A stretch of 64,000 nt of DNA, from assembly GCA_050084515.1 (NCBI GenBank), contig CM114271.1:11966001-12030000 (forward strand), read 5' to 3'. Made by a program: the position numbers and the translations under genes. Within the stretch, counting starts at the first letter, position 1, and every line of letters starts with the position of its first letter. The stretch is from Blasia pusilla. Its lineage: Eukaryota. Positions 13,807 through 59,867 of the stretch are shown one piece after another. A model generated the notes under the pieces. The model saw only the letters and a program-made list of their open reading frames with translations. It was not told the DNA's origin and made no database searches.

Positions 13807-14125
13807 ACACTATCTTGAGAGTGTGTGAGATTTTGCCATCTGGTGGGACGCGATGGTGATATTGGAGGGACGCGATGGTATGATTTGGAAGGACCATGTG
13901 CGTAACTATGCGTCATGTCACCTTCCTAACATTGACGGTAGAATTGATGTGAGCTTAGCAGTAGTTCCTACATGCTTGCGATGTTTGTTGTGTGGTTTCC
14001 CCCCATGGTGTAGCCACTATGCTAGTCTGTGATGGATGTTCGAGAGGGTGGGATATAGCATGTCTGATGCCACCTCTCACTAGGATTCCTCGGGGACGAT
14101 GGATGTGCTCTAGATATACATAGAG
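13807..14125 (+). pseudogene. Retroelement integrase-tail + PHD finger fragment
   Basis: Translates to ...MLVCDGCSRGWDIACLMPPLTRIPRGRWMC. Homologous to 52350-52657. Confidence 0.7.
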
Positions 14126-15519: not shown

Positions 15520-21029
<5,510 letters not shown>

Positions 21030-25210: not shown

Positions 25211-25524
25211 AAATGACCGCTCACTTAGTCAAAAGCTTGCGAGAGGGATCAAGACGATATGTTCAGGTTTCAAACATACGAGGAGCATTGTATTTATTGC
25301 TTTACAGAGATTAGAACTCCCCATTGTGCTCTCGACAATCAGGTGACGTCAATCAATTTACTTGCTTTATTTTCACAGACCGTTGAGGCGTGCATTCTGA
25401 GGTTTACTATCATTGGTATGAATAGAATATTACAAGTAATGCAATAGATTCCGAACTCTACCTCTAGCAATACACACGATAACATTCTAATGTTTGTATG
25501 CTTCCTACAATCCATGTAGTGCTA

Positions 25525-28057: not shown

Positions 28058-28400
28058 CTCATTCTCATTCTCTTAAAATTTTTCTTTTAAAATATTCCTC
28101 TAAAATTGGTTTATGTCTAGCTCGCAACTTTTTCATTCTCTTTCTCTTTTCTTTTTTGCTCTTTACGTTATTTCCTTATCCAATCTATTTTTTCCTCAAT
28201 TTTCCCATTTAATTTTCATCATCGTCTTCTCATTCTCATCCTCTTAAAATTTTTCTTTTAAAATCTTCCTCTAAAATTGGTTTATGTCTAGCTCGCAACT
28301 TTTTCATTCTCTTTCTCTCTCTTTTTTTGCTCTTTACATTATTTCCTTATCCAATCTAATTTTTTCCTCATTCTTCCCATTTAATTTTCATCATTGTCTT
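28058..28400 (+). repeat. Two ~170-bp AT-rich direct repeats upstream of RepHel
   Basis: ctctaaaattggtttatgtctagctcgcaactttttcattctc occurs twice (~28099 and ~28269). Confidence 0.8.
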
Positions 28401-36700: not shown

Positions 36701-39700
36701 AATCAAGAGGAACTTGCTGAGTTGAAGAAACAGTTGGATGAACTCCTAGAGAGGGGTTACATCCGAACAAGCAAGTCACCTTATGGGGCACCCGTCCTCT
36801 TTGTAAAGAAGAAGGATGGGAAGTTGAGACTCTGTGTTGATTATCGGGCGCTGAATAAAGTGACGGTAAGGAACAACTATCCTCTACCAAGGATGGATGA
36901 CCTCTTTGATCGATTTTCGGGTGCCAAGTATTTCAGCCGAATTGACCTGAAATCAGGATATTATCAGATTCGGATTGCCGAAGCGGATGTAGAGGAGATT
37001 GCGTGTAGAACGAGATACGGTTCGTTCGAGTTTGTGGTGATGCCTTTTGGTCTTTGTAATGCGCCTCCAACGTTTACCACTTTGATGAACTCCATCTTTC
37101 ATAAGGAGACGGATGAGTTTGTGATCATCTATATAGATGACATACTCATCTATTCGAAAACACTAGAGGAGCACGCTCGACATTTGAAGACAGTGTTTGA
37201 GAAACTTAGGGCGAACAAGTTGTATGCGAATGCGGATAAGAGTGAGTTCGGTTTGACAAAGATCAAGTTCTTGGGGCATGTGGTTAGTGCGGATGGAGTG
37301 AGTCTAGACATGGAGAAGGTAAGCGCGATTGTCGAATGGAACCGCCTTCCACGGTGAAGGGGATGAGAAGGTTCATTGGAGCAGTCCAGTTTTACCGGAC
37401 ATACGTGAAGAACTTTTCAGGAATAGTGAAACCTCTCACGGATTGGACCGCAAAGTTTTCCAATACTACATGGACCGAGGAAGTGGATAAAGCGTTCAAT
37501 CGAGTCAAAGAGATCCTCTCGAGGAACGATTCAAAGCGCCGGAGTTTGACCAACCGTTCGAAGTGCACACGGATGCTAGTGATTTTGCGAATGTTGGTGC
37601 AAAAAGGGAGACCTGTAGCATACGAGAGCAAGAAGCTTAGCGACACCAAAAGGAGATGGCCTACTCATGAGAAAGAGTTGTTTGCGGTGGTTCACTGCTT
37701 GAGGAAGTGGCGTCACTATCTGGGACTTCACAGGACTCGAGTATTCACCGATAACATATCGCTCAAGTATTTTGAGACCCAGGATCGCGTACCGCCAAAG
37801 CAACTTCGGTGGCATGATACCTTGGCGTTGATGAATGTGGAGCTAATCCACAAGCCGGGGAAAGACAATGTCATTCCAGATGCGTTAAGTCGCAGGGATG
37901 AGCACATGCCATCGACGACACAAGTGTTGAGAGCAATGTTCCCTAATGAAACAAACCTGGAAAGAAGGATTCGTGAAGGATACGCAAGCGAGGGAGTACC
38001 TTGGGAAGTTAAAGCGGGGCGAGAAGGTGGCCAATCTGAGTTTGAGACACGGCTTGCTGAGGTTTAAGCAGAGCAGGATCTATGTAGGCCAAGGCAAGCT
38101 ACAGACCAAGGTGTTTGTGGAATGTCATGATGGACCTTTGGCGGGACACAAAGGGGAGAAATCCACTCTTGCTGTTTTGACCAAAAGGTTCTTCTGGCCC
38201 AACATGAAGGAAGATGTTGCTCAATATGTGAAAACATGCGTGACCTGTCAAGCGAACCGCGTTTCTTATGCGAAGAAACAATGCTTACTTCATCCTTTTC
38301 CAATCCCGAAGGGACCCTTGCAAAGCATTAGCATGGATTTCATTACGAGTCTTCCGGAATCTGAGGGATACAACGCTATACTTGTGATAGTTGATCGGTT
38401 TAGCAAGTTGGGGAGGTTTGTGCCGACGAGAGAGTCTGCAACGGCCTACACGACTTCCCGACTATTCCTGGATGGTTGGTGGCGAGCGCACGGATTGCCT
38501 AGGAGCATTGTGTCCGATCGAGATCCAAATTTTACCAATGCCTTTTGGAAACATCTATTCATGAGGTTCCGGATCAAACTCAGCTTTAGTATGGCCTTCC
38601 ATCCTCAAACGGATGGGCAAACAAAAAATTAAACTCGGTCGTAAACCAATACTTACGGAATTACGTGAGTGCAGACCAAAGAGATTGGGCCAAGTGGTTA
38701 AGTATGGCTGAGTATTGTTACAACTCGACTAAGCATTCTGCAACCGGAGAATCTCCGTTTCTTCTGGCGTATCAAAGAGAACCAAAAGGGCCTCTTGACT
38801 TAGCTCTTTTGAAGGGCGCTACATCGACACACACTCGTCAAGCAACGGCGGAATGTTTGTTAGTGGAAATGCAGGAACGACAAGAGCGAGCGAGGAAAAG
38901 TCTCGCCAAGGCTCAACTAAGGTACGTGAAGCATGCTAACAAAAGTCGGCGCCAAGTGAGTTTCCAAGTTGGGAAACAAGTGTGGTTGAGTGTAAAGAAT
39001 CTCACTCTTCCGAAGGAATTGTCCGCGAAATTTTCAGCCAAGTATGTTGGACCGTATGTGATCAAGGCAAAGCGGTTTGAGGATGTGTACACATTGGAGC
39101 TGCCAAACGAGTTCAAGATTCACCCGACTTTCCAGGTGTCATTATTGAAGAAGTGTCTTCAAGACAATGTGCGTCCGGAGCGAAGGAGGATGTTGAGACC
39201 ACAACCGGTCATCAGAAATGAGAAACCAGAGTTCGAGGTTGAGACCATTGTGCGTTCCAGACGTAGAGCCACCAAGTACGAGTACTTGGTCAAGTGGAAA
39301 GGCAACCATGTGAAAGAGGCGACTTGGATTGCGGAGGCGGATCTTGAACACGAGCAAGAAGCATTGCGTGACTTCAGATGGATGCAAGAAAGGCACGTGC
39401 GTTAGTACATTGTGAAGCAATGGACATAACTTGTGACCGGAAAGCTTGGGCCGATAACCCGTTGTAACTAGAAATGTTTTGTTGTTGCAATAAAGAAGAC
39501 ATGGATTTGGAGATTCGATGCTTGTATTGTAATTTTGAGTTTGGTTTGTGCAAGGCAATGAGTAGTTCTTCATATGCTTAGGGTGTAAGTTAAGGAGACC
39601 AAACAATGAGTATTTGAGGTGAGAGCTTGTATTCATATAAGGCATCTAGATCAGGACCAAATGTTGAAGTACTAGCATTTGGGCTTGCCCTAACGTCGGC

Positions 39701-41128
39701 GGGGCAGATGAGTCTGTCTTGGGGTTTGTGATGATCTCATTCATGTTGCATGACTGAACTTAGTGATGCGCCTAGGTGGAGTACAAGTGACCCAAAAGTA
39801 GTACGAGTTGGCTAGGTAGACAGGCGGTTGTTTACAAATAGTGAGTGAAGTGTTAGGTTGCAAACTTAGTGAGCTTATTTTGATAGTTAGATTAGTTCAA
39901 CAGAACTAGTCTAGGCTCATCAAAAAGAAGAAGCTAATAAGTCTAAGTGCTGCAAGTGACAACCTAAGACTTAAGCCAAAAGAGGAATTGCGGGTTAGCT
40001 ACCAGAACGCGATTCAGTGTTAAGGGGTCGGCTTCCCAGAACTTAACATTAATAAGGTTTGCGTTGATGAGGACATCAACCTTCTAAGGAGGGGTGAGTG
40101 TCGCGACCCTCGTAACCAAACAACACCAAATAGGCGCCAAGCGAAACATCAAAACTCAAAGGAACTCACGCTGCGAGGTTTGCGCTTTGGAGAGGCGTTT
40201 GGATAAGTCCCTTGGAAACGTCTAAGGGACGAAACGCGGAACAGAGTTGTGCGTTTCATGCGTTATTGTTCGCGACCAGGAAACCTAGACCAAATGCAAG
40301 CCAAGACTTGAGATTAGTTGAGTCTTGGGAGGTTGGTTGCCAAAGAGGTGAGAACCAGTTTGGAACACGACTAGCGTTTGGGAGAATCTGACTGTGTTTA
40401 GGACCATAGCGTTGAGCTCCAAGATGCGTTTGGGACAAGTAAGGGTGCGTTGGAAAGCTGATCTTGAGACGCTTTGGACGCACAAAGATCTCAACAAATG
40501 CATAAGTACACGCTGAGATATTGGCCAAAAACGATTGAAAGAGCAATCGGATTGAGGGCCAATTGGAGAGGCCCGGGTGTCCTTCCCTAAATGTAGGGGG
40601 CCCTCGGAGATCCCTAGAAGTACTAGTAAGGGAGGGCCCTCTCCAAGATGTCTCGGGAAACGAATCCCCACTTTGGGCGCCAAACGGCGTTTCAAAGGCA
40701 TGGGATGGAACGGGAGTTTGGCGTTGGAACTCGAAACCCACACCTGATCCAAGGGAGTGGACTTTGTACGCCACACTTGGATTCCAACCCAAGATTCACT
40801 TCGTGCGAGTCTTGGTGAGGAACTCATTGGATGTCCATCGGACAGTTGGAACCGCTAGGCGCGAAACGCCGTTTCAGGTTCTTGAACCGACCAGAAAGTC
40901 TGTCCCAAGTCTTTCGAGATTTTCCCGTATTGGAAACCGTGAAACTAGGAAGGTTGAGCTTGATGAGAGTCCGAGATGAGAACTCGGAAAGTAATCCCGC
41001 TGATTGATCCAAGACCCGACTAACCGAAGTGCGTGTTTGGATGCAGATCAGCGTTGAGAGCGTGACCTACTGAACGCACGCTTCCGCAACAAACAAGATT
41101 AACGTTCAAGGAGAGTAGGCGCACGACA
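33721..41128 (+). mobile_element. Complete Ty3/Gypsy chromovirus LTR retrotransposon
   Basis: LTRs 33721-34750 and 40099-41128 (1030 bp each, TG...CA). TSD TCTTT on both sides. PBS tgatatcagagc (tRNA-iMet-like) at 34753. PPT aaggaggggtgag at 40086-40098. Confidence 0.96.
34901..39405 (+). pseudogene. Gypsy gag-pol (Gag, Zn knuckle, PR, RT, RNase H, IN, chromodomain) with frameshifts
   Basis: [30 protein letters not shown] and DDE integrase; chromodomain EFEVETIV...YLVKWKG...ATW. Frame breaks near 37340, 37520, 37985 and 38630. Confidence 0.95.
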
Positions 41129-42209
41129 TCTTTGGTCTAATGTAAGGGTCATGAAGTTGAAAACAAACATGAGAGTTCAAATGTTGGATGGTCATTTGCG
41201 TGATGAACAACAAGCTTTTGCTGATTGGCTATTGGAAGTGGGAGAGGGTCATGTACTTTTACACCCTCATTTGGGAGAAGACTTTATACGATTACCATCT
41301 GAAATTGTTACTAAAAGTAACAAAATATGTGATCTTATTGATTTGAGCTATGGAAATTTTCTTAGCCGATTCCATGACATTTATTTCTTAGGAGATACAA
41401 TTATTTTGACTCTGAGAAATAAAGATCTTTACGATGTAAATGCAGACGTTATATCTCGGTTCCCCGGAGAGGTAATCCTTTAGACTTATCTCATTTGTAC
41501 TTCTATCAATATACTTTTCCGGAAGTTTGGATACTAATATTTCCATTTCTCACTAATTCATTACATATTGGGTACAAGAGCATATTTACCTTAGCGTCGA
41601 CTCTATTCCAAATGAGGGAATGAGTCATATCTACCCAACTGAATTCTTGAACACACGCTTGCCTTCTGGACTTCCTCTGCATCGTTTGTGTTTGAAGATT
41701 GGTGCACCAATCATGCTCTTACGAAACATGAATGGGTCACATGGACAAGCAAACGGGACAAGATTGGTGATTCGTGGATTTATGAGACATTGCATCGATG
41801 TTGAAATTATCACTGTGAAAAATATTGGATATCGCATTTTTATTCCACGTATTCCATTGATTGCATCAGATTCTAGTTTGCCATTTGATTTGCGTAGGTT
41901 TCAATTTCCTGTTAGACCGGCTTTTGCTATGACTATTAATAAGTTGCAAGGCCAAACTTTGCAAAAGGCTGGCATTTACTTGCCTACTCTTGTATTTTCT
42001 CATGGTCAATTGTATGTAGCATTATCTAGAGTAGGAAAGAGAAGTTCCATCCACATTACCATTGGAAGAGATGAACATTCAAATAAAAAAGATGACTACA
42101 CACGAAATGTAGTATATAAACAAATATTGAGATGAAATAAATTTGATAAAATGTATCTTCACTCTATACTACCTTATTTCACCCGTGCATCGCACGCGCA
42201 CCTTACTAG

Positions 42210-43429: not shown

Positions 43430-44813
43430 TATGCCCTCACTCACTAAGTAAGGGCATGTTAGATAGAGATAGAGCATGCGCTTCTATTAAGCCATAGCAC
43501 ACACATGATGGAGTCGGTTTGGTTCACGTCAAGAGAGAGAAAGGGGTTTTTAGAGGGACGTCATTGTCTACAAAGCATTGAAAATTGAGCGGAGTTGCAA
43601 GAGTTTTGAAAGTTGACTACATGGATTCCAAAGGGGTTGAGCTAAAAGAGAACTGTATGGTGGGAAAATAAGATCTTGAGTAGATCATGAGCAAGCAAGC
43701 TTGAGCTAAGACATTGATTGTATACCATGTGGGTTACATTAATGAGGTTAGATTATGATAGTGATTTGCGAAAAACCCCTCAAAACATAAAGACTATCTC
43801 TTTTCCTTTCCTACCTCTTCTTAGACATAATATGTTTTGGCTATAGTAGGGCAGAAATCCCCTTCAAGTTCAAACTTGGACATGCAAAGAGGCCTAGCGG
43901 CTATGCATCTATAACCAAAATTTGGGGTTGTTGAAATCATATCTCTACTTCTAAAACTTTAAAAGAAGACCCAAATAGGATCTTCCTCTAAACCATATAT
44001 TAGGGGGTAGTCTCATGAATACTTGGAAGATTAAATCTAAAATGGATTGCATAAATAGCTAGATTACAACTTCAATTGAGAAGTGGGTGCCTTATACACA
44101 AGAACATGCAAATACATAGGAAAATGTGGTTGAAACCAAGATGTAGGACTATGGAGATTGGTTCTTGGAGCATCCTCCACACCAATGCACTTCTCCTCCT
44201 TAGTTGATGAAGGCACCAAAAAAGGTTTATGTCTATAGGAGCAAATCTCAATACAAATTTCCTTAAAGGGTAGGAGGAGATGTGAACAAAAAAATAGAAA
44301 ATAGATCTAGGATTCTAAAGTTTTCTTGTAAGGGAGGGGGCAACAAAAGAGACCATTGCATGCTAAGGCGAGATGGAAGGGGCATCACAATAGGAGCATG
44401 CCAACTAATCAACCAACATATATACACCGTAAGAAAGCCAACACACCAAGGTCAAGTCAAATCATTAAGATCACAATTAACTTAACCATAATTAACAATA
44501 ACATATAAGAAATGACTAATAAACCAATTGAAGTGAGAGACTTTTAACCATGGTAAACTTCCAACCATAGTTTGTACAAACATTCTGAGAAGGCTAAAAC
44601 TTTGATTTTCTGAGAAAAAGAGAATTTTAGTAGTATCAAGAGAGAAGAAGGGGCGTTTAGAGACGTTGTTACTCACAAACTCTAGAAGTCCTTCCATACA
44701 ACTCGTCAGAATCCGACATATTGCAAGAAATGAAAACCAAAGAGAAAGTTAGAAGAGAGGAGAGTCTCTCTTCCATCGCAACCTATTGGAATATCACATG
44801 TTGCAAATGAATA

Positions 44814-45251
44814 TGTCACATCTCTTATGATAGATCAACGAGTTTTGGTAGAGCACCTTCAAGGAGATTGGAGAAAAGCCTCAAAATATCAAGGATAACC
44901 TCTTGAGGCCTCAGGCAAATTCAGAGAGCAGGTTTCCCCTTCATTTTTGATCATTTGGCATTATATAGAGAAACTTGCTATTTCATGTAACTTTCTATCA
45001 CAAGTATAATTGGCTTTCCACTTTGGAAAGTAGCCTTTGATCCCCTACATTAGGTCAAGAGCCAAGGAGGTCATCTACGACCATAGTTAGCATAGAGGGA
45101 AGAGGATATACCCAAAGAGAGGGAGCTCCGAAGCTCATTCTCTCTTTGTTGAACCTCTTGGCATAAGGCGGGGGAGCTTTGGTCCTTTTTGTCTTATGCA
45201 TAACCCAATCATCTCATTAGGAGAGGGGGTTTGGTTTGACATGAGAGAGAG
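44814..45251 (+). repeat. Truncated copy of the LTR-like family (A part)
   Basis: tgtcacatctcttatgatagatc...gtcaagagccaaggagg...ttctctctttgttgaacctcttggcat...ggtttgaca. Confidence 0.6.
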
Positions 45252-46969
45252 GATTGGAATTTTTGTGCATATTTTGAGTAATCTTGACTCAGAAGGAGAG
45301 AATGAGAGATCAATTGTGTTATTTTTTATGCAAATTTTAGTATAGGGGAGAGGCGTACTAAAACGCTGCTTTATTTTGGATAGGATTTGGGTATGAAGGT
45401 AGAGTTCTCCATTCTTGGGCTCTTGGGCAAATTTTTCCACTCTGGGTTTGTTGGATTCCATTTGAAGAGGTAATAGTTTTTTTAAAAGAAATCGGCACGA
45501 AAGTATTGCCAATTTTTTCATAAGAGTTGAGGCTGCAAGCTGCACGAAAATTGCCACCAATTTCAAATGAAATGTTGGATGAAGGACCTAGTTTAATGAC
45601 ATTGTAGATCGAGAAGTCATGCAGATTGTCAAAGAAATGGTGCGCAATTATGACACCTAAGCACAAAATTGTGGGCAATTTTTGTGGGTTGCCATAGCCA
45701 TCGAGTGAGTGAAATTTCACTCACTCGGTGAAGTAAAATCAGGTCTTGTTAGTGAAAGGTAAGTGGAAAGGCTTTTCTTAGAGGCCTTAAGGTGAAACCA
45801 TATTTTTGGAGGATTTACCGCATGTGTGGGGGACTATGTTGGGACAAAGTTCAAGTTGGGATTGGGTTTGGAGTTTAGATCCAAATTTCCCAAGGATTGT
45901 TGGAGTAAAGTTAGAAAGAAAAATAGGTTGGGGGATGTGCGTTCCACCCAGCCCTCATGGCTATCTTGAAGGCCCTACTAACCACCATATGTCCTTGATC
46001 GTTAGCCTTGCCTTGCTTGGGAAAAATCTTGTTAGCCTTCTGTAATGGCGGACGTTGCTCTTATCGCATTTTAACTTCCACCCCATTTTACCCGGTTGTA
46101 GTTGCAACTTGATAGCCTTGTCCGGTAGGGCCCGTCCAAAACTACGACTTGACTGGTTGATTAATCCATGTCCTTTTTGTCCATTTCATTACGGCCTTTA
46201 CATGTGGGAGTAGTTTATGGACCCTCTTCAAGATTGCTCATTTTTGTCTAATCTCGTTGCACCTATCTAGGTGGCGAATAGGGACATCCTCACCTTCCAA
46301 TAGAGATATGGGCTTCCATCTATCTCGATACGCTCATGTCACGTGTCCTCCTTATTATTGCTACTTATTGCTAGATAGTATGTTTTTACTTTTGGTAGCC
46401 TGAGCACCACTTTGGGTGGCGCTTAGGCTAGCATCGATATAATTTCCTATGTGTTGCAACTTTCATGCTTTATCATTCACTCATGTTGTTCTCGTGGTTG
46501 TAAATGAAGTTGTTGGCTACTATGAAAGTTTTTTTTTCATGTCAAACAAAAACCATTTTTCCTTGTACATCATATGCATCTACATCAACATCTAGATTTC
46601 ACACGGCTACTTGCCTTTTTCCATTTCCATCTCGGATTCATGGAAGCTTGGATTCACGATTCATGATCTGTGTGTATTATCAAATTTGTACCATATATAC
46701 AAGCTTGTTATGTCTCCCTTGATGTCTCCTTGCATGTTCTCTTGAATCCGTCAAGTGAGTCTCTTTCTATGATTCTCACGCTCATTTCACACGTTTGTGT
46801 TTTATGCACTTCACGTGGAATTGTTACTTTTTTCCCCTTCTTCTCTTACTTGCTTGCTCAAGCTTAGCTAACTGATGCGGGTCCAATCAATAAGTGAGGA
46901 AATCTAGTTGTTGCTTTGTACACAAAGTCGTCGCCCTCGCATCTCATCTAATAGTGTTCAATATTTAAC

Positions 46970-47852
46970 CTCCTGCAAGTGTCTCAAGATCCTCATCATC
47001 TCCCAAAAAAACCTGCACCGAGTGTCAGCTAATCTGCTACCTCGTCCAACACTCGATTGGCCCTGACATGGCCAACCAGTAGTGACCAAATCTATGGCCC
47101 CTACCCGCTCTAAGTCCTGCGCCCTGAGCAATGAAATGTCCCTTGGTAGGAAACTCTAGAATCCATGTACGACGGACGCAGACAACAAGTCGAGAAATCG
47201 AAGGTGTTAAGTGTGCTACATGGTGAAGTGATGTGCGCCTCGCAACATCATCAATCTCAACATACAAGTAGTGTTGCACACTCACTCATGCTTGCAAAAC
47301 AACAGCTAATCCAATGTTGATCCCTCCAAAGAGATCCAAGACATGAATACCCTCCTCTGGGATGCGCCACACAATTGGTGTGGTGTCCAAGGGGGTCATA
47401 GTAGAACTCACGGCTACCTCGGGTTCCTCTAACCCGTCACGCTCTGGTGCAAACGCCCCACTCCATACCATTTGCATGTGCTTATATGCCAAGCGTCGGA
47501 GCTCCTTACTCGAGCCCCACAACGGCACCTCTCCTCCACGGAATGATGCGGCTATCATAACAAACCTCTTCCTAGAAGTATCAGGCGCGGGGATGTCCTC
47601 GGCATGGACATGCCCCTCAATCAAATCACTAAGCCATGTGATGGCGTTGCAGAATGTTGCTAATTGTCGCCATCTTTCATGGCCGTTGCTCGATCCCTCC
47701 ACCCTTGAATCGAACGGGAAATGAGCTAAGTCGCCCATCACCTGACTGCCATCATGGTCTGTAGGACACTGACTCGTCCCAATAATCCAGAGAAAATCCC
47801 ATCGGGTATAATATTGCTCCATCAACCAAGACGTCGAAAGACTTGGCATCAA
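46970..47852 (-). pseudogene. Retroelement pol fragment: protease C-terminus followed by C5 DNA methyltransferase motifs I-V
   Basis: Manual translation: FDVLVDGAILYPMGFSLDYW (retropepsin-like end, ~47780-47840); VLDLFGGI (motif I); YVEID (motif II); IDLVTTGWPCQG (motif IV, 47060-47095); RLADTRCRFF. Frameshifted. Confidence 0.8.
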
Positions 47853-49061
47853 TTAACTTTTCAAATTTTTTCAAATTTATTAATATTTATTTTTATCTAT
47901 TAGAATATTAAATAAATTATTAATTGATCAGTATTTTTTTTTTCTATTCCACTCAGATCCCTATCCATTTCTACCCCATGTAATATGGCTCAAACAACAC
48001 AATTCAAACATGTCATATTATCATTATTTTATCATATTATGTCGGTATCTTGTCGTATTATGGATACGGCCCATACGGGGTCGCCAATAGTTATATACAT
48101 TTAGAAAATATGAATTTTTTTTCCAAAATTTGATTTCATAATTTTCAAATTATTTTTAATATTTTAATGATTAAATCATTCCACTTCTTCTACTTTTAAC
48201 TTTAATATATGCCCATTGGGGAAATTTTCAAAATATAATTTTTGGATATTCATTATTTTATAAAATAATGAATAAAAAAATCCTTATATTAAGTATAAGT
48301 TCAAGATGTTCGAATATATGTAAAAAAAATTAAATATAATAAATATAATAATTAAATTTATATCAAAAAAACCTTTCAATTATTGTACCTTGCACGTTAT
48401 CCATTTCATGAACTCACTTCATGGAAAACATTCATGATTGGCTCACATTCACAAATCTCCTAAGTGAAATATTCTGAAATATTATGAAAATTTACTTACA
48501 ACAAATGAGTAGTTTCCCAACAAATATTTGGATTGAGAGGAACCTACTACTTATGTACATTAAAAAAATAAAAATATAAACTTATTCTATCTAATCTAAT
48601 TCCAAATATATGTAACACTGGTGCGGACGTCTCACAAACTCTTCCTCCTCTTCCCCTAGCTCTAGTCACGCGTGTCCCACCTCCACAAGGAATAGTCCTC
48701 TCCAACTCAACATCGGCTTCACCATCATCTTTTTCTTGTGTTGGCTCTGTCGGAAACATCTCACACTCTCTCTCCAAGAATCCAAAAAGTTCCTCCTGCA
48801 TTCGACGAGGGTAATGGTATGTTTGAGGATATCCCACTTCTGTCCTTTGATGAATATCTTGCCATAAGAAAGGTGGCAAGATCAATTGAGTCTCCTCAAA
48901 ATAAGGTCATCCACTAATGGATTTTGATGATGGTTTAGCACAAGTTGTCGAGTTGTGTTGAGGGCGTCTCGGACTTCATGTGGATTCAACCCCCGAGTGA
49001 AGAAGAATTTTTATACCTCTCAATTTTGGACATCTATGGCTTTTCTGTGGATGAGTTCCCC

Positions 49062-50700
49062 TCAATCGTACATGTTAATGAAGCAGACCAGCCACGCTAG
49101 CATTACCCGATCAATCCTCTGTTGACGAAGGATTTTTGCGTGAACCACCCTATCTATGTTCACTTTGGGGTTATAGTTCGATCGGGGGCTACGATGTTCC
49201 AAACTGAAAGTGAAATTGTCTTGCTCTTGGGTTCGCTTGTGATATGTAGGTGGTGCATTGCTATCAAGAGCACAGAAAGATATGCCAAAAAGGTGATAGA
49301 GTCTTCCTGACCAAACTTGTCTACAAGTTGGACACTTGTGAGATTGTAGCATGGCCTTTTGAAGACAATATGGATGCCAATAATAAGCTTTACATGTGTC
49401 TTTCACGCAGCAACCTTCTACAATAATGGGGTTGAAGCAAATCATGCATTAGGGCCAGTTGTTTGGCGTTAGGGCCCCTCCTTCACTTACTACGATTTCC
49501 TTCATCCAATCCGGAAGATCTTGCACTTGTGTGCTCAAATTTAGAGGTGTTCGGGCCAACATCATAGAGGCACAGTTGGTTGGCAGCGTTTGGATCTATG
49601 AGATTGTCCCATGCTACGCGTAGAGTTGGAGGCCACAACTGCTCCATAGGTTGAAATAAGATCATATCAACCTCCTTCACAAGACGAACCTCAAGTAGAG
49701 TTGTCTCGGAAGTGAGTTCTTCCACGTTACCCTTTGCTCTCCATCGCAACAATTCATCCATCTCTTATTTTTGTCTTGCCATGATGTTTTTATATGCTCT
49801 CCTCCACTGCTCTATGTGGTCAACCATTACAACTCTTAGCCTTCTATCGAGGTCATCTTTGGTAATAGATTCGTTCAAAAGCCTCTCCATCTCTCTCTTC
49901 AATCCGTTGTACTCCTCAGATAATTGTTCATACTTCCCCTTTGTCATATCTTTTAGGATAGATTAGTGAGATCTAGTAGAGTGCCTTTGTGAGTAGTGGA
50001 GGACATGCTCAGTAGGTTGAGGATGACCTGCTCAGGCCCCGGGAAACCTGAGAGAGCAGGTTTCCCCTTCGTTTCGGCTCATTTGGAGCCATATTTAGGA
50101 ACTTACTATTTTAGGTAAGTACCATTTTGAGTATATGATCGACTTTTTTTTTTTAAGTGGCCCTTGACCTCCTACATGAGGTCAAGAGCCAAGGAGGTGA
50201 CCATGGAGCATAGGTTACTATGGAGAGAGCTTGGGAGAGGGGAGGGGTATACCTCAAGAAGAGAGAGCTTGAGAGCTCATTCTCTCTTTGTTGAACCTCT
50301 TGGCATGAGGCGGCGGAGGTATGGTCTTGCTTGCCTTGTGTCCGTAATCCAAGCCTCTCATTAGGAGAGTGGGTTTGGTTTGACATTGAGAGATACATAT
50401 GAGAGTGCACACATGTGAGAACTATAGTGTTGTGAGAGAGATTTGATCTTATTTTATTGGAGATATTTTGGTACTTCTTGTCTCGTTGTTTAGATGCTAT
50501 GAGTTAGCATGGGATCATGCGTGTTTGTGTGTGTGTTCGATGACAGCGATGTGTATGCGCACGACACCTTCAAAACGTTGAATTCCGCGGCCAAATCAAA
50601 ATTGCATTGGGAATGTGTTTTTAAACTCTCCAACTGTGATAGACGAGGCATTACCTCTTGACACCAATGTTGGACTCGTCTTGGTTCTCTCCCGCTCTCG
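49062..50700 (-). pseudogene. Coiled-coil + RING-finger coding remnant interrupted by a solo LTR
   Basis: CMIC...C...HPYC...CPTC at 49310-49450. Heptad-like segment continues in frame across the insertion (AEFNVLK-GKYEQL). In-frame stops present. Confidence 0.5.
49942..50566 (+). mobile_element. Solo LTR (625 bp) with 4-bp TSD CCTT
   Basis: TGTC...GCGCACGACA flanked by cctt on both sides. Removing it restores the reading frame of the interrupted ORF. Confidence 0.8.
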
Positions 50701-52099
50701 ATGGCCCAGCCCCACTAGACATTTCCCTCAGATGAAGAAGATAAAAAAGTATTTTAAAAGAACAAGTGAAATAAATATACGGGTTAAGATAAGAAAATAC
50801 CGAAAAGATAATGACGCGAGATGCTATAAACATGGCTCAGAATGTATGGGCACATGAATGATGGAACGACCGTCTCGCTTTAGGGTTGGGCACTCAAATG
50901 GAATATATAGATATGGGCATTTCTAGATATGTTTCGTTGACGACTTCCACATCCCCAATGTGCTAAGGAGAACCAATGAAACAAATCTAAAAATTTGAGT
51001 CTATGAATCGAAAATTTCAAAATCACCAAACAAGTTCAGTAATACGAGAGATACTTGTGTTAGAGTATCGAGTAATACTCATCTAATATGGAATCAATCG
51101 GAGTTTCTTTAGGATGCAACAAGGAGCGAAAATATCCAAGTTGGTCCAAAATAAAATCCAAGTACCCCCAAAAGGCACCCAAGGGATTTTCCCAAAATTC
51201 CTAGTAACCTTGGAAGCCCTTAGTTTTCAAGGCACTGATGAAATTTGGAGCCTGATCCAAAATGTCACCCAAAAAAGGATAAAACATGAGAAAAATAGGG
51301 ATAAGTGGATTAATTAACCCCATATCCCCTTGTTTTATTCATTTTGGGGGCCAATTGCTTGCCCTTGCCTTATGGGTTTTACCCAAAAGGGGGAGGGGAG
51401 GGGAAGGGAGGATAGGGCAAAGTTTGAACTTGGCCCCTGCCAATCAAAGCCCGCCATGTGTCCCCGCGGGGTTCGCAGGAGGCGGGCTCCACGTCAGCTC
51501 TTCCGATTGGCGAGATGACAACAAGCTAGAGCGGGAGCAATGGTGGCTACGGTGGGGGCAAAAGTGAGCACGCTATGGAGCGGTGCCATGTGGCGCCATC
51601 CAATTGGCGGAGATCACGGCGGGCTCACGGGCGGACTCGCAGCCCGCCTACATTGATGCGGGCTTGCGGGGGGACTAGCGGCGGGTTGGCTCGCACTTGG
51701 AGGGGTAGGCTCCTGGGCCCACATACGGGCTATGATGTGGGCCCAACTTATTCGCGACGTGGGCTTGACAAAAAAATAGGTGTCGGGCGTGATGCGCACT
51801 GGCCGATTGAGCAAGGATGGAATGCTCGGGATGCGCGGGGCCAGATGAGGGCTGCGGGCACACCTCAAGGGCACATGGGCCTATAGAGCTCGCATCCAGG
51901 CCCGCACGGACATGTCCATCCTGGAGATGGATATACGTCCGCGGACACAGATTTTGTCCGCGTGGAACCTTGTTAGGACCTCTTGTTGCCGTGGTTGGCG
52001 AAGAAATACAGATTCAACACGCATGCCTGGTTAGCGTCTTTCTCACTGTTTTTGTTGCTTTATGGTCGAGAACCGGATTTACATGTGGTCATTTGTCGA

Positions 52100-52657
52100 G
52101 ATGCTGGTGAGGTGTTGGACCTTGATGATCTTAATACATGGATGCGAGCATATTCTTAGAGGCCTAAGTTGATTTGGAGAGTGATGCCCATGGCGTTTGA
52201 GAACTTGATGATTGCACATCATCGGGATACCTTGAGGTATGCGACTATTCAGGGAGGTGGTTTTCGACCTACTATCCGGAGGTTTCATCAGGGAGACTAT
52301 GTCTACTTGCAGCAAACAGCATACACGACGTTGGATGTGACTACAAGGCGCACTATCTTGAGAGTGCGTGAGGTTTTGCCATCAAGTTTTCTCTTATTGG
52401 AGGGACACGGTGGTATGGTTTGGAAGGACCATGTGCATAACTCTACGCCATGCCACCTTCCTAACATTGACGATACAGTTGATCTGATCTTAACATTAGT
52501 TCCTACAGGCTTGCAATGTATGTTGTGTGGTTTCGCCTATGGTGCAACTACTATGCTAGTTTGTGATGGATGTTCGAGAGGATGGCATATGGTATGTCTG
52601 ACATCACCTCTCATGAAGGTTCCCTGGGGACAATGGATGTGCCCCAAATGTACATAG
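52100..52657 (+). pseudogene. Gypsy-type integrase C-terminal region fused to a PHD finger
   Basis: MPMAFENLMIAHHRDTLRYA...FHQGDYVYL (integrase tail), then CMLC...MLVCDGCSRGWHMVCLTSPLMKVPWGQWMCPKC (C4HC3 PHD). Confidence 0.8.
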
Positions 52658-52966
52658 AGTAGATAGTGATAGATTTCAACTTGCATTTGTGACATGGATG
52701 ACAAGAAGTCGACTTACAATGGGGCCACATGAGCACCCGGCCTTTTTGCTCTTAGCGTCTTAGAGATGTATGTCATGGTAGGTAAGGATAGATGGCTATA
52801 TGGAGTTAGAAGGAGCTAATCACTAGCTAGGGGCTGATTGAAGATATTTTGATGCTTCTCGTCTCGATGTTTGGATGCCACGAGTTAGCATGGGATTGTG
52901 CGTATTTTTATGTATGTTTGGTGACAAGGATGTATGTTGTGTACTGATGTGTATACGCACGACAAT

Positions 52967-53285
52967 TGTTACATGTGTTTGGATAGATCTACGAGATCTA
53001 GTAGAGCGTATTTGGAGATACAAGAGGATAGCCTTAGGAGGTCAAGGATGACCTGTTGAGGCCATGGGTAATCTGAGAGAGTAGGTTTCCCCTTTGTTTC
53101 ACCTTATTTGGAGCCATACATATAAACTTACTATTTTGGGTAAGTTTCCATTTAGAATATAATTGTCTTTATACTTTGGGAAGTAGCCCTAGATCCACTA
53201 CAGCAGGTCAAGAGCCAAGGAGCCAAGAGGTGCAAGAATTGGCTACTGTGGAGAGAGCTTGGGAGAAGGAAGGGGATATACCTCC

Positions 53286-53358
<73 letters not shown>

Positions 53359-53450
53359 TGTTGATGGAGAGATCCACTTGATCGTTCTTGTTTGTGTGTT
53401 TGTTCAGTGATAGTGATGTATGTTGTATAGCGATGTGTGTACACATGACA
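52967..53450 (+). repeat. LTR-like family unit with (GA)n, downstream of the PHD region
   Basis: Homologous to 49942-50566. (GA)n at ~53290-53355. Confidence 0.65.
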
Positions 53451-53454
53451 TACT

Positions 53455-54330
53455 TCTTTAGCAGTTTTCTACATGGTATCACAATGATATGAGAATATCA
53501 ATTGAAATTTGTGATGCTTGAGGAGAGAAGAGAGTCAAGCGAAGGCACAATTCTAGTTTGGGAGAAGGAAATTTATTTCAATCAGAGCTCAGTGGCAGAA
53601 GATTCCAAGTGGAGCAATAACGGTGACAAAACTTTATAGACATTTTTAGGGATTTCCCAATTGATTTAGAAATTTGGGTCCGCATAGATAACAATGACAC
53701 AAAAGGTTAGAACTGATCCTGTTATAGATCTCGTCAAGAGCTTTAACGCATCCAAAATCATTTTGATTCTGACATTATGAGCTTTTGCAATAGCAATTTC
53801 AATGTAGGAAAGTGCAACTAGTGAAGGAAAGTTATGTAGTTTGCTCTCTATAAGCCAATTTTGACTAACTTTCTTACATACAATTGGTCAAATTTGGAAA
53901 ATTTCAGGTCAAATGTTTGTGGAATTGATCTCTATCTCAATTAGAATAGTGGAGAGACTAAAATTATATTTCGTGAGTAAAATGATTCATAACTGATTCC
54001 TCAGCAACAATCATAAGCAAGAAGCTAGATAAGTAAAATTATAACATATGGAAACTTCGCATGAAACAATTTCTCATTGGTCAAGAATTATGGAAGCTTG
54101 TTACAAGCAATAAGGCCAAACTAGAAGAGGACTCAACAAACTTGAATATTTGCGCTTGGAACAAACGCACAAGGTAAGTAATCCACTATAATTCAATAAG
54201 GATCAACTTGCTTAACGTAATGATTGGTCACATGGAAGATGTTGATACTCTAAAGGAGATATGGATACACTGGAAAAGCTCTAGACATCTACAAAGGCCA
54301 AAAATATTCAATTGAAAAAATAATTGAACG
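53455..54330 (+). mobile_element. Ty1/Copia 5' fragment (LTR end, PBS, gag start)
   Basis: tttagcagttttctaca followed by tggtatca (PBS). NYNIWKLRMKQFLIGQELWKLV at ~54036-54105. Confidence 0.7.
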
Positions 54331-54344
54331 AAGTGAGTAAAGGA

Positions 54345-55971
54345 TCGCAAAACATCTATGGGATAGTCGGAAGATTGGTGTGTCGCTAGACAACTCAATG
54401 CAGATTCTGGACCCTTCCGCATACCCAAATTTTGCATGCTAAATTCAAAATAGCTCCTATAACTCCTAAGGAACAAATGTATCTGGCACCGCTCTCCTCC
54501 TATCAACTTAGGGCTCATACTTGGCTCCCAAGTCTCCATTATCACTACGGTAGGACTCTCAAGTATGGGTATCGGTGGTTGCTATGGTGCGACCCTATCT
54601 CAGACAACAAGACTCGACTGCTCCCTAGAGCCAATTGCAAACTCTCATCTCCTCCAGATGTAGTATCGGGCACCACGCTCGATGTTGTGACGATCATCTC
54701 TTGGCGTACTTTCAAAACATCCCAAGAAGTCCAAGGGTGTCTCTCCCGATCATCCCTCATATTTCAATCTCCCCGGGTCTTGCCCCTAGCCATTGCCTCA
54801 ACCGTCTCGGTAGGCATGGGCTCACCAATACAACAGCTGTAACTTGTCGTAACCTTATCTGACCTTGCTCAGCAACTCTTAAGTGATGATCCATATCAAA
54901 TAGTTCAAGTTCATCGCCTGAACCAGAATATGACGTCGTGATGCCTCTGATAATGACGGTACTATCGTCACTCCTCTAGGAAATCCCATCGCCCGCTCTT
55001 GCTCATTAGCATTGGGCTCCACCAACCGTTCTACTTGATCATCCCAAACCAAGTTGGGTCCGGCCTCCTTGTGTGCATAGGAAGCAAGGAAACTCACAAA
55101 AGTAAGAAAGATTGCATATGGCATACCAATCTTGTTGACTATAGTCAATAGCGGTTGATCATCGTGTCTCACTGCCTGTGATCAATGACCCGAATCCATG
55201 ATAACATCTATCAACAAATGGGAGGGGTGCTCCACTCTCGCATAAGCCCTCTACAACATCTCGAAGTAGGACCAAGTTGTTCCACTATAAACACGGGTGA
55301 TGAGCTCCTACACTCGTTGCATCCAAGAACACTGTTGGGCAGATCCAGACATACACCTAATGTGCACTCGTCACTACACGTGACCTCGGATCGCCCAAAA
55401 TTGGTACATTCTCCAAGATGTAAGTTGGAGAACGAGACTATTGCGCATGCAAATATCGCAAGATCCTCATTATAGCCCAAAACAACCTGGATCAAAGGTC
55501 AGCTAATCCGCTACCTCGTCTATCACTCCACTGGCCCTAACATGGCCTACTAGCAATGACCAAATCAATGGTCCTAATCCGCTCTAAGTCTTGCACCCCC
55601 ACCTAAAATGTCCCTCGGTAGGAATATCTAGTACCCCTGTACGGCGGACACAGACAAGAAGTTGAGAAAATAGAGGTGTAACAGTGCCATTTGTTGCTTG
55701 ATTTGTTGAAGTAAAATGCACCTCGCAATCTCATCAATGTCAACAAATACTATTGCACGTGCACTCTCGCCTACAAAGCAACAGTCAAAATGCAACCTAG
55801 TGCTAATCTCTCCAAAGAGATCCAACATTCGAATCATCCTCAAGGATGCGCCACACAATGGGTGTGGTGTCCAAAGGTGTCAAAATAGCACTCCCGGGTA
55901 TCTCGGGTTCCTCCGACTCGTCACACTCTGGTGCAAACGTCTCACTCTACGCTGTCTATATGTGTTTATCG
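54345..55971 (-). pseudogene. Retroelement pol fragment: full C5 DNA methyltransferase domain followed by the start of RT
   Basis: MLDLFGEI (I); FVDID (II); IDLVIASRPC*G (IV); YILENV (VI, 55405-55422); DATSVGAHHPCL*WNNL (VIII); EQERAMGFP...RRHILVQAM (IX/X). Then ICIELSSDTPIFRLSHR, typical of the Gypsy RT N-terminus. Confidence 0.85.
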
Positions 55972-57220
55972 TGTAGAAAACTGCTAAAAAAGCATAATTG
56001 GTGGGATACAACTCTCACACTCATATACCACCATGGAGAATAAAATTTTGCACTAAGAGAATGAGTGGTGGCTAGTTCTCTTATCAATTATATAAGATAT
56101 GTACAAGAAATCCTAACCCCAATCATAACCATAGTCTTGAGTTAGACTAACTATGGTTAACTAACCTTAGTTAAAATAATCGCGCTTAGTTGACTAGTCA
56201 AGATTAAGCTCCCCTACTTCGTGTGTGTATCAAATATAGGGAAGCTTAATCTTGACTAGTCATCTAATCACTAGCAGTTTGAGCGTTCGATGAGCTTGAC
56301 TATAACTTAGTCTTCAATACTCCCCTTAAGCTCATATCAATATTTCTAACACCTAAATTGTTTCTTAATATCTCAAACTTTTCTCTAGACAATACCTTTG
56401 TAACGATATCAACAAGTAATTGTTGCGGCCACACCATCTCACGCTGCATTGGTTGCTCCTCAGTACTCACCCTCTGTCGAAGATAAAACAATTGTAGGTT
56501 GCTTCTTTGAAGCCTAACTTATAGATGCGCTTCGTAAGTAAATGAATGAATAACCATATGTGTAGTGTCTATCAAACATGCTTCCTGCACAATCAACATC
56601 TGTGAATCCCTCTAATGGAAACTCGGAGAAGATTCAAATTGAAGCCCGAATTAAACAGAGAAGTTCACATACTGCAACATCCTTCTCACATCATCAAGGT
56701 AAGGTTTTCAAGATGCTTGCATAAATTGGCTCACTAGGCCAATTGTGTAGCTCAAATTTGGTCTAGTTATAGTCAAATAGATCAAACTTCCAACCATGCG
56801 CCTATACATATCAGAATTTGCAAGCAACTCTCCTTCATCCACTCTTAGCTTTACACTCTGGTCCAACGGTGTAGAGATTGGCTTACAAGCCATCATACCA
56901 TATTTTTAAAGTATGTGAAGAGCTGGTTAAGTCATAAATACCTCCTCATATATATAGATCTTCACTCAAGAAGGCATTCTTGACATCCATGTGATGAAAT
57001 TTCCACTTTTTACTTATTACAACTGCAACCAGTATTCTCATAGTCATAATCTTTGCAATAGGGCTAAATATCTCCTCATAATCGATGCCATATTGTTGGG
57101 CATAACCCTTGGCTGCCAATCTGGCTTTGTATCTGTTCACTATACCATCTTGATTGCGCTTGACTTTGTAAACCTATTTACAACCAATAGCTTCCTTACC
57201 GGAAATAATATCAAACAGCT
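55972..57220 (-). mobile_element. Ty1/Copia 3' fragment (RT remnants, PPT, 3' LTR 55972-56319)
   Basis: RYKARLAAKGYAQQYGIDYEEIFSP; HMDVKNAFL; YRRMVGSLIYLTITRP; DIVTKVL; PPT aaggggag; LTR ends ...ttttctaca. Confidence 0.88.
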
Positions 57221-57726
57221 CCTAGATGCAAGAAGTGTGAATTGCTATTCTAAATTTAAGTGCACAATAATGATATGTTAGGGAATTATTTAAGTGTACT
57301 CTAGGTTCAGCACTAAACTTTACCCTTGACATTGGTCTTATATGAGTAAAATCGTTTACGTAGTACTTTATTCACATATTATTCCATATTGGCTCATTGA
57401 TTCGGCTTATTTCACTGCATGTTTGAAGATTTTGTTCCATTTTTACATATGTGATGTGTTGTTATTACTTGAGCAGCTTTGTCTACATGTTCTTGGGGTG
57501 TTCCTGCTTGAGATATAGCTCAAAATTTGCACATCAACCTTTCTAGCTATTTGTTATAAATATCAGCATTGTTACGCTACATGATCAATCCGTTGTATTA
57601 CGCATGTATATCGAATTATAGTTGTTGTTGAACCATATCCATTTGTTCAGATTTCCTACTTCACATTCACTCACTCAATTATTGTCGTTGCATGTTTGAG
57701 AGTTTTTAGCGACATATTCATGAATG

Positions 57727-57804
57727 TTCTAAATTTTAGATATCTCATAATCATAGATCTATACCTTCTCAATTTTAGATATCTCATAATCATAGATCTA
57801 TACC
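57727..57804 (+). repeat. 39-bp tandem duplication
   Basis: aattttagatatctcataatcatagatctatacc occurs twice. Confidence 0.85.
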
Positions 57805-58717
57805 TATCAAGTTTGCTTATCGCTAAATCACAAATGTCAAATTGTTTCAGCTACCTAAACTATGGGATGTACAAGTTGTATTTCTGGTCCAAAATTGTGA
57901 GTAGTACATAAGGAACATAAGCTCAAATTATGACTACAATTGTTTTTTAAGATTTCAAAATTGATCAATGAAGTTATTCAAGGAATTGCACCGCCCCACA
58001 GATTGAGTTTTGGGACATTATCCCCCTAGCTAATAGTGGACAATTTCGTGTGCTGGACTATTGTCCACTAGTTGGGAGTGAACTAAAAAATTTGAAGTCG
58101 TTTAAGAACCGTGAGAGTAGTTAACCCTAAACATTGAGCTAGTTAGAATTTTACAAAGACACTGCTTATAGAGTTTATTGTGATTGTGATTTGATTGGGT
58201 TGAGTGCTGTTTAATACATTGGGAAGTGCATGAAGCATTACCTAGCTCACGTGTCTGATTTGTTTCTCACAGCATTTGGTGGGAATAACCAGATACTGAA
58301 TCAAATTATTTATCAAGAAAATTTTCCTTTTAAGGATCGGACACCTTTTTGATAGTTACAAGCCGCCCGCTCAATGGTAACTTTTCCTCACATCTACCCA
58401 CGCTACAATGGTGAATTTGCGACTTACTGCAATTAAGGACTTCCACTTGGTTCACCCAATTTTCCACACATCATTTGGACACACTATTGTTTGGGTTTTT
58501 GCCCATCCACATTGTGTCGGCTGACTTGATTTCGACCCGCTCTAACAAGCTGGGGGCCGTATACTTGTTTGGTCTTCACATATTCCAATCATCATCGCCA
58601 TTGGAGAAATGGACTCTCCTTAGCTACGTCACTCCTTGTAGGAAATTTGGTCTTCGGTGACTTTGTAATGTAGAGGGTTGAGGCCCCGGGATACACCTAA
58701 ATGGTAAACATTTGCCA

Positions 58718-59115: not shown

Positions 59116-59867
59116 TAATGAATTTAGTCTCTGAAAAGAGGACCTTTTATTTCCCCGTTCTAAACTGTCTTGGTACCCCCTCTCTGCATGCCTTGTTTTT
59201 CACTGGTCGACGGGAAAATCCCACCGCTGCGCACGGCCGGGGCAGCGACGGGAGCGAGTCATTCGGGCGAGCATCGCGTTGCGGAGCAGGAAAGGGGAAC
59301 GGGAGATGAGATGGAAATGGAGGCGGGGAAAGGAAGTAGGAGGAGGACGGCGATGAGGAATTGAGAAAGGGGAATTCGGAGCGAAGTGAGAAGGAAGGCG
59401 AGATCTGGGTGGAGCAGAACATCGTTCGCAGTGGCGCAGTAGATCTGTTCGATGATGTGATGGTCTATGTTTCCATGGGATATGGATGAGGAGGTGGATG
59501 CGCATTAGCAGTAACGCGTTAACTGTGATTGAGATTCTCTCCGGATCGATCGGCGGAGGTTTTCCGCAGAGTTGGCGCAGTAATATATAGTAGAGGAGGA
59601 AGATAGATAGAGAGAGAGAGAGAGGTGCTGGTCAGACTGCGTGTCAACAAATTGGAACGAGGTGGAAGTGGAGAGATAGAAATTAGGACCGGGTGATCAG
59701 TATCGTGTAAGAAAAGGAAAGAGATCTATGGATATAATTGACTGAACGAAGCAGTTGGAAGTAATTGAACGAAAGCAATTGTTCTCAGGGCAGAAGCCGT
59801 CCGGTGAGACAGGCATACAAACAGAAACACAGACTGACAGAGAAGAGGGAAGAAACAGGAATTGAGG

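Follow-up and report, generated by a model that had tools for sequence, protein, structure and literature searches.

Probable relics of a multi-copy Ty3/gypsy-type retrotransposon family with a DNMT3-like domain in the liverwort Blasia pusilla

In this paper we looked at a 64,000-nucleotide stretch of Blasia pusilla DNA (assembly GCA_050084515.1, contig CM114271.1, positions 11,966,001 to 12,030,000 of the forward strand), here called the window, in which a preliminary description had pointed to two diverged copies of a DNA cytosine methyltransferase (DNMT) domain. We conclude with high confidence that the first copy, at window positions 46970-47877 on the minus strand (-), is a dead internal fragment, truncated on two sides, of a liverwort Ty3/gypsy-type retrotransposon family, and that a second, more decayed fragment of this family lies at 54357-55994 (-). 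The polyprotein of the family is read as Gag, protease (PR), DNMT3-like methyltransferase, reverse transcriptase (RT), RNase H, integrase (INT) and PHD finger. What this analysis establishes is the order of the domains, that the two copies belong to the family, that the methyltransferase has an affinity to DNMT3, that the family is multi-copy and that both copies have decayed.

Translation of copy 1 from 47877 to 46970 (-) begins with the last part of a retroviral-type protease (FDVLVDGAILYPMGFSLDYW), passes through a linker that is conserved and finishes with the N-terminal half of a C5 cytosine methyltransferase. These parts are spread over three successive minus-strand reading frames, which jointly make up one recognisable protein segment (asterisks mark stops). 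The first frame (frame 3; 47707..47877, -) reads ...SFDVLVDGAILYPMGFSLDYWDESVSYRP*WQSGDGRLSSFPVRF and contains the protease motif FDVLV...DYW, encoded at 47779-47838 (-), together with the conserved post-protease block SYRP*WQSGDGR; this motif is in a different frame from the 188-residue open reading frame (ORF) that leads into DNMT motif I. The second frame (frame 1; 47204..47690, -; ...LIEGHVHAEDIP...PLDTTPIVWRIPEEGIHVLDLFGGINIGLAVVLQA*VSVQHYLYVEIDDVARR...) holds the linker (LIEGHVHAEDIP, PLDTTPIVW), motif I (IHVLDLFGGINIGLAVVLQA), with the FxGxG signature in the form DLFGGINIG, and motif II (YLYVEIDD). The third frame (frame 2; 46970..47203, -; ...GF*SFLPRDISLLRAQDLERVGAIDLVTTGWPCQGQSS...FFWEMMRILRHLQ) contains PRDISLL, the catalytic motif IV with its PC pair as GWPCQG (47060-47077, -) and FFWEMMRILRHLQ. 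The 65-residue ORF that bears GWPCQG (46958-47155, -) matches Pfam family PF00145 (DNA_methylase) with an E-value of 5.1e-8 and 33.1 bits against a curated cut-off of 22, and no Pfam family was found for the 188-residue ORF or for the motif II ORF.

Copy 1 is a pseudogene that is truncated on both sides. The catalytic motif had been described as intact, and this holds for the motif but not for the gene, which carries three in-frame stops (TGA at 47752-47754, TGA at 47283-47285 and TAG at 47156-47158) and two frameshifts, one between 47707 and 47690 and the other at ~47204-47211, the site of 11 nt that are kept in copy 2 and gone from copy 1. On the protease side the homology stops at ~47877, with AT-rich non-coding DNA upstream; on the other side it stops at ~46970, where motif V is reached and motif VI is not. 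Against the protein P0226 copy 1 seemed to reach as far as 46874, but on inspection this extension proved spurious.

The relatives of this segment were collected by an exhaustive phmmer search of 1.84 billion representative proteins, using the read-through of 47037-47849 (P0001) as the query, which gave 76 matches at E<=1e-3 (15 at E<=1e-10), mostly short fragments. P0018 reads LLDSGAQ ... YDVLVGSTVLYPMGFILDYW ... SFRPGWQSGDGR ... DNMT motif I and so spans the protease and the DNMT N-terminus, P0019 (1775 amino acids) has a Gag with a CCHC knuckle, a protease and a complete DNMT, and P0075 (1649 amino acids) has the order RT-RNaseH-DNMT-integrase-PHD. With the PR-DNMT part of P0019 a word-indexed search found 23 proteins of 976-3107 amino acids, and an Atlas search gave a best score of 0.82, which is a lead only. 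Pfam analysis of ten long relatives, seven of them from the word-indexed search, separates them into two architectures, and the motif scan agrees. Type A, Gag(CCHC)-PR-DNMT-RT-RNaseH-INT(-PHD), is found in P0084, P0086 and P0088 (2352-2374 amino acids). In P0084 (2352 amino acids) the protease lies at 764-860, the DNMT starts at 1018, and RT, RNase H and integrase follow at 1497-1656, 1719-1848 and 1967-2135; P0086 (2358 amino acids) has its PHD finger at 2300-2344, and P0088 has 2374 amino acids. The motif order in the type A proteins is D[TS]GA, YDVLLG, motif I, GW[PE]CQ, ENV and YxDD. Type B, RT-RNaseH-DNMT-INT-PHD, is found in P0089, P0090 and P0075, and P0071 is also listed with this order.

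P0042, itself a 'hypothetical protein' from Marchantia polymorpha, served as a further query: its PR-DNMT part gave 35 proteins, among which 19 rows are named as Marchantia polymorpha, two as Calypogeia fissa and two as Sphagnum (S. troendelagicum and S. jensenii). Pfam analysis of ten of the 35 finds DNMT, RT and RNase H in this order in the Marchantia proteins P0222 (460, 833, 974), P0242 (308, 534, 757) and P0252 (92, 321, 444), and Gag followed by DNMT in P0224. At the protein level the window pieces are 50-68% identical to proteins of Marchantia polymorpha, Calypogeia fissa and Sphagnum. The preliminary description had combined the two copies into a PR-DNMT-RT order within one polyprotein, and exactly this order is found in P0084, P0086 and P0088, while the DNMT is accompanied by a protease, an RVT_1-type RT, RNase H and integrase in these three proteins and in P0222. 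Within the window itself two domain pairs are left and no more, the protease end with the DNMT in copy 1 and the DNMT with the leader of the RT in copy 2.

The identification of the protease end comes from the alignment of copy 1 to these relatives. All three frames of copy 1 are collinear with the protease end, the linker and DNMT motifs I-V of 11 relatives. FDVLVDGAI of copy 1, which has the hydrophobic-hydrophobic-Gly pattern of the C-terminal protease strand, aligns on YDVLLGMAF of P0084 (residues 851-860), and the Pfam protease matches of P0084 end at that same site (Asp_protease_2 at 858, gag-asp_proteas at 860); in the relatives the retained motif covers the final ~10 residues that Pfam matches as aspartic protease, ~75 residues past D[TS]GA. 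By tblastn more than 30 relatives match 47877-47707 at 52-68% identity over 41-60 amino acids (P0018 at 53% over 58 amino acids, E 1.4e-15), and the protease piece alone reaches E-values of 1e-8 to 1e-17, a likeness far beyond chance. The suggestion that FDVLV(D) resembles the C-terminal motif of retroviral-type proteases is supported by these matches. It had also been suggested that the methyltransferase comes immediately after the protease; the order is correct but the word 'immediately' is not, as ~170 linker residues lie between the protease motif and DNMT motif I.

Regarding the kind of METHYLTRANSFERASE, all 29 of the 29 solved-structure matches of the relative P0021 are DNMT3A, DNMT3B or DNMT3C (best E 1.8e-10), a comparison that was done with this relative and not with the broken copy of the window, and the methyltransferase of the family is accordingly DNMT3-like. 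By motif scan, motif IV of the retrieved relatives is PCQ in 34, ECQ in eight and another variant in six; the glutamate variants are the eight with ECQ and three with ECT, ECS or ECV, against the 34 with PCQ. The proline of the catalytic 'PC' motif is near-universal. It is replaced by glutamate in many of the relatives (P0084, P0086, P0088, P0075, P0071 and others), which have GWECQ, GWECT or GWECS.

Copy 2 is a more decayed yet longer pseudogene of the same family. Its DNMT occupies 54882..55994 (-), where the part from 55969 to 55448 is homologous to copy 1 at the DNA level, and copy 2 matches P0019, P0021, P0084 and Marchantia proteins by tblastn. Beyond the point where copy 1 ends, copy 2 goes on through motif VI (YILENVP), motif VIII, ERAMGFPRG and motif X until 54882. 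After a gap past the DNMT, a segment at 54357..54530 (-) is 40% identical to residues 696-748 of Marchantia P0222 (tblastn E 1.7e-6), the stretch directly before the RT domain of that protein, with which it is collinear; weak collinear matches of this RT-leader segment are also seen to P0084 (residues 1432-1457) and P0086 (residues 1381-1406), with an E-value of about 0.1. The family sequence ends near 54350, and the whole fragment extends over 54357-55994 (-). In the frames of copy 1 it has seven stops in 160 codons plus several indels, and its catalytic motif IV is broken (PC*GQ). An open reading frame that includes motifs VI-X is found in neither copy, as copy 1 ends before motif VI and copy 2 is interrupted by stops.

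Directly upstream of the copy 2 DNMT there is a Ty1/copia fragment (56300-57173, -; RVT_2 at 56949-57173, E 2.3e-20) with decayed downstream RT/RNaseH frames, which may have truncated the 5' part of copy 2. The RVT_2 match was considered as the RT of the DNMT element and rejected, since it belongs to this unrelated fragment and lies upstream of the DNMT.

The two copies had been described as homologous but clearly diverged, and the alignments confirm it: blastn aligns 46974-47463 with 55448-55947 at 75.8% identity over 508 nt (E 1e-97), and a global alignment gives 400 identical of 535 aligned positions with 27 gap columns. Other than copy 2, no blastn match to 46001-49000 was found in the 64-kb window. 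One defect is common to both copies, a TAG at the equivalent codon (47156-47158, GF*SF, in copy 1; 55625-55627, GY*IF, in copy 2) at which the relatives have Q. This can reflect either a common defective ancestor or the same CAG->TAG change in parallel. One possible option is, then, that both copies belong to a non-autonomous sublineage, whose master had lost its function beforehand and was copied in trans by relatives that still worked, and are not two once functional insertions that decayed separately. The shared TAG speaks for such a master, but one C->T change in a CHG context, where methylation tends to drive mutation, is enough to produce it, and it could arise twice; moreover, none of the other stops and indels is common to the two copies, which are 25% diverged. 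We therefore consider a defective master rather unlikely and retain two separately decayed insertions.

The number of copies was approached through public sequencing data. Parts of the stretch are present in five public DNA runs, which come from two studies and a single organism, and four of them were used by placing their contigs on 44000-58000 at >=80% likeness; no RNA run is listed among the public runs that hold parts of it. All four runs consist of contigs, and the summed depth is for this reason not a copy number. Near-identical contig pieces on less repeated parts, for example 356 nt with no differences at 44537-44892, suggest that the runs come from the same or a very close species. 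The summed depth is 1346-3775 over the copy 1 bins (46802-47735) and 465-1645 over the copy 2 bins (54741-56141), with flank bins of 0-0.8 at 45868-46801 and of 0-1.5 when 57543-58000 is included. The number of distinct contigs that differ from the window at one site tells more than the depth does: they number 54, 62, 32 and 36 in the four runs at site 47082, 36, 43, 29 and 27 at site 47564, and 31, 24, 18 and 23 at site 47719 in the protease-linker part. Because 18-62 distinct diverged contigs are found per single site of copy 1, the DNMT element is a multi-copy, diverged family with tens of copies, as the preliminary description had proposed.

These counts also bear on another origin of the pair, a local segmental duplication within a 9-kb region instead of separate insertions. 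It would fit two copies that lie 8.5 kb apart on the same strand, but the similarity is limited to 46974-47485 and 55448-55969 with unrelated flanks on either side, shared flanking sequence or insertion junctions between the copies were looked for and none was found, and the sequencing runs hold tens of further diverged copies; such a duplication is very improbable. Least credible of all is a host DNMT3 pseudogene, or a host gene fragment captured by a DNA transposon, with the protease likeness arising by chance: the DNMT3-like character and the absence of flanking terminal repeats would agree with it, but the protease end, the RPGWQSGDGR block and the linker stand in the same order as in relatives with Pfam-certified protease, RT, RNase H and integrase, the protease piece scores far too well on its own (1e-8 to 1e-17), and the family is multi-copy.

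Other pieces of the retrotransposon family can be found elsewhere in the window. An integrase C-terminus with a PHD finger (Pfam PHD, 2e-8) lies at 51977..52654 (+), on the opposite strand from the DNMT copies, and is a separate decayed insertion of the same family; by tblastn it matches residues 2120-2345 of P0086 at 42% and residues 383-608 of Marchantia P0228 at 64% over 226 amino acids. A second fragment of the integrase end and PHD finger, at 13847..14114 (+), was recognised by tblastn with P0086, P0090 and P0228, and 13808-14769 is 79.5% identical to 52351-53296. Because of these P0228-like integrase-PHD pieces and of the domain order in the Marchantia relatives, the liverwort family is of type A and ends in a PHD finger. 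RVT_1 and integrase matches at 36600-38800 were considered as the family's own and rejected, as they belong to an unrelated chromovirus.

A 629-bp repeat unit at 49938..50566 (+), which recurs at 14441-15107, 44814-45248 and 52966-53304 and in inverted orientation at 20575-21029, is probably the terminal repeat of the family. The last ~100 bp of the unit (50456-50552) recur at 52837-52933 and 14304-14400, downstream of the PHD fragments, and directly after each of these ends comes a further unit (52966-53304 and 14441-15107, respectively). This end-start-end layout after both PHD fragments (52837-53304 and 14304-15338) resembles split direct repeats. In some contigs exactly 49938-50566 is missing, with four shared letters; an empty site or a solo unit would look like this. 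Nowhere else in 44000-58000 does the summed contig depth come near that of the unit (21,000-37,000 at 50071-50537), and contigs are found that rejoin its end to its start with one or two extra letters, which could be tandem units or circle junctions.

Several observations weigh against the assignment of the two copies to such a retrotransposon family, or against a working enzyme within it. The protease active site D[TS]GA, which in the relatives stands ~75 residues before the retained motif, is not in the window; it is lost, since the homology stops at ~47877 with AT-rich non-coding DNA upstream. A search with protease profiles had been proposed as a check, and it gave nothing: the 57-residue protease fragment of copy 1 matches no Pfam family at E<=0.01, with ~10 residues of the domain left, so that the protease call depends on the alignment to relatives. 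Beside the two copies the only trace of the family's RT, RNase H or integrase is the short RT-leader of copy 2, and there is none by copy 1. No minus-orientation repeat unit adjoins either DNMT copy, both being internal fragments. Some of the Marchantia proteins are 'partial' gene models, in which defects may have been skipped. The ratio of nonsynonymous to synonymous substitution (dN/dS) between the copies, proposed earlier as a sign of past selection on the DNMT, is 0.67 with a bootstrap range of 0.43-1.03 (Nei-Gojobori, 153 codons, two dead copies), no lower than the off-frame controls of 0.63 and 0.81. The divergence between the two relics looks like neutral decay, and they give no evidence of selection for the DNMT. 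Lastly, when the domain of KnitGypsy-Dnmt3, a gypsy-type element of the charophyte Klebsormidium nitens, was expressed in yeast no methylation was seen, a result that its authors call inconclusive in the accessible text of PMC5890265, and the enzyme activity of gypsy-borne DNMT3 domains is at this stage putative.

We nevertheless hold to the reading of both copies as fragments of a DNMT-bearing gypsy-type family. Neither copy in the window has a function today. In a working element, going by general retroelement biology and by PMC5890265, the methyltransferase would be translated within Pol and presumably cut free by the element's own protease. Once free, it might methylate cytosines in DNA using S-adenosylmethionine, and the most plausible target would be the new cDNA of the element or the surroundings of its insertion. 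The PHD finger that is fused to the integrase would read histone tails and so probably take part in the choice of insertion site. In chromoviruses, chromodomains guide integration through histone tails.

The window as a whole is eukaryotic sequence, crowded with the remains of transposons. A Helitron extends over 30753-42132 (+), with Helitron_like_N at 30753-31526 and PIF1 helicase pieces at 33429-33734, 41103-41480 and 41557-42132. Nested in it is a nearly intact chromovirus-type long terminal repeat (LTR) retrotransposon (33721-41128, +), which has an 824-residue Gag-PR-RT ORF at 34883-37354 followed by RNase H, integrase and chromodomain, and whose LTRs (33721-34750 and 40099-41128) are 97% identical. 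Two host genes are apparently intact. One is KRI1, a single ORF of 657 amino acids at 22414-24384 (-), which is most similar to the KRI1 of liverworts and so marks the host as a liverwort other than those matched: identity is 66% to Marchantia polymorpha, 62% to Riccia fluitans, 61% to Calypogeia fissa and 58% to R. sorocarpa, with lycophyte, fern and seed-plant matches behind them at 38-55%. An Atlas search with KRI1 did not separate lineages, as Streptophyta and Chordata clusters both scored 0.97. The other is an HRD1/synoviolin-like E3 ligase at 59838-61832 (+), with TPR_SYVN1_N at 59838-60401, a RING domain at 61389-61832 and intron-like gaps. A moderately repeated stretch at 48547-49962 (-) has a summed depth of 63-237 and contains a coiled-coil-like ORF and a RING-H2-like finger ORF (49062-49448; zf-RING_2 E 1.9e-4, under the cut-off); no match was found between the ORFs of this stretch and the Gag of the DNMT family. 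A tandem duplication of ~3.3 kb (944-4298 and 4299-7945) has 81-82% identity between its halves, and its ORFs of ~300 amino acids (914-1810 and 2482-3390) have no Pfam match. An RVT_1-type reverse-transcriptase ORF lies at 18660-19259 (+; E 2.1e-26) in a GC-richer block (16000-20000). Rfam gave no matches and the tRNA scan no genes in the window.

The locus itself is an ordinary relic, of value in that it points to the family. Plants fight transposons mainly with cytosine methylation, and because of this a transposon that has its own de novo methyltransferase is a paradox. This kind of element is known but rare, the bryophyte land plants are apparently a host group in which it is undescribed, and the domain order may be a new variant. 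Going by the accessible text of PMC5890265, such elements have been described in print for dinoflagellates and one charophyte alga only, while the window and its named relatives show that land plants too were reached by the family, which multiplied in them, at least in liverworts and Sphagnum. Our literature search, with subscription journals outside its range, yielded de Mendoza et al. (2018) and papers that cite it, but no paper on DNMT-bearing retrotransposons of liverworts, mosses or other land plants, none that joins 'MpDNMT3' with 'retrotransposon' and none that discusses the named Marchantia, Calypogeia and Sphagnum proteins. We propose, tentatively and with the odds somewhat against us, that a multi-copy gypsy-type lineage with a DNMT3-like domain between protease and RT is present in bryophytes (this liverwort, Marchantia polymorpha, Calypogeia and Sphagnum mosses), in an arrangement that appears undescribed. 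If this is true, the order differs from RT-RNaseH-DNMT-INT, which would mean two captures of the methyltransferase or, in a single PHD-bearing lineage, its relocation inside the polyprotein. It would also contradict the published statement, as it stands in the accessible part of its source, that land-plant transposons encode no DNA methylases. The family sequences are already public under generic labels, and Marchantia polymorpha, in which expression, methylome and knock-out tests are routine, has the family; if it has working copies, the role of a retrotransposon-borne DNMT could be tested in a genetic model.

The closest published system is KnitGypsy-Dnmt3 of K. nitens, in which a Dnmt3-related intron-less DNMT lies inside a gypsy-type Pol polyprotein (de Mendoza et al., 2018, PMC5890265, as far as its accessible text goes). 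Both there and here a streptophyte hosts a Dnmt3-related DNMT within such a polyprotein. The repeats of the algal element have 'the structure of repeats ... of a DIRS retrotransposon' (PMC5890265, Fig. 4c legend), and here, in a similar way, past the integrase-PHD end a further repeat unit follows straight after a second occurrence of the unit's last part. The host is an alga in one case and a liverwort, a land plant, in the other, and whereas the K. nitens copies show Ka/Ks < 0.2 in the same source, no such signal is seen between our copies, which are both dead. The PR-DNMT-RT order is known here and in the bryophyte relatives; that of the algal element is given in Fig. 4c of PMC5890265, and the text of the paper, in which 'protease' and 'PHD' do not occur, states no order to compare with it. 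In the parts available, bioRxiv 10.64898/2026.05.21.726589 mentions 'streptophytes (Gypsy-DNMT3)' and PMC12344493 cites the same source (de Mendoza et al., 2018).

In SymbioDIRS-Dnmt3 of Symbiodinium a Dnmt3-like domain is likewise part of a Pol polyprotein, where two domain orders coexist and de novo CG methylation was seen in yeast (accessible text of PMC5890265). That element, however, belongs to the DIRS elements and carries a tyrosine recombinase, its host is a dinoflagellate, and its authors infer an independent acquisition in the same text. The type B relatives (P0075, P0089, P0090 and P0071) share with the liverwort family the gypsy-type RT, RNase H and integrase, the C-terminal PHD finger and a DNMT that is ~35% identical to that of the window; they differ in that their DNMT lies between RNase H and integrase and that their catalytic motif is often GWEC(Q/T/S) and not GWPCQ. 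The cellular DNMT3A and DNMT3B, which are the best solved-structure matches, have motifs I, IV, VI, IX and X in common with the family, but here there is no PWWP or ADD domain, the context is a retroelement polyprotein and motif IV is PCQ as opposed to PCN. Members of the family itself are the Marchantia proteins, for example MARPO_0091s0058 (P0222), AXG93_2318s1200 (P0042) and Mp_7g09570 (P0228), together with those of Calypogeia fissa and Sphagnum: their identity to the window is 50-68% over its protease end, its DNMT and its integrase-PHD pieces, and they have the order PR-DNMT-RT-RH. They come from other species, and the database names listed for them are generic ('hypothetical protein', 'unnamed protein product' or labels for one domain, such as reverse transcriptase or DNA cytosine-5 methyltransferase), with 'retrotransposon' not among them.

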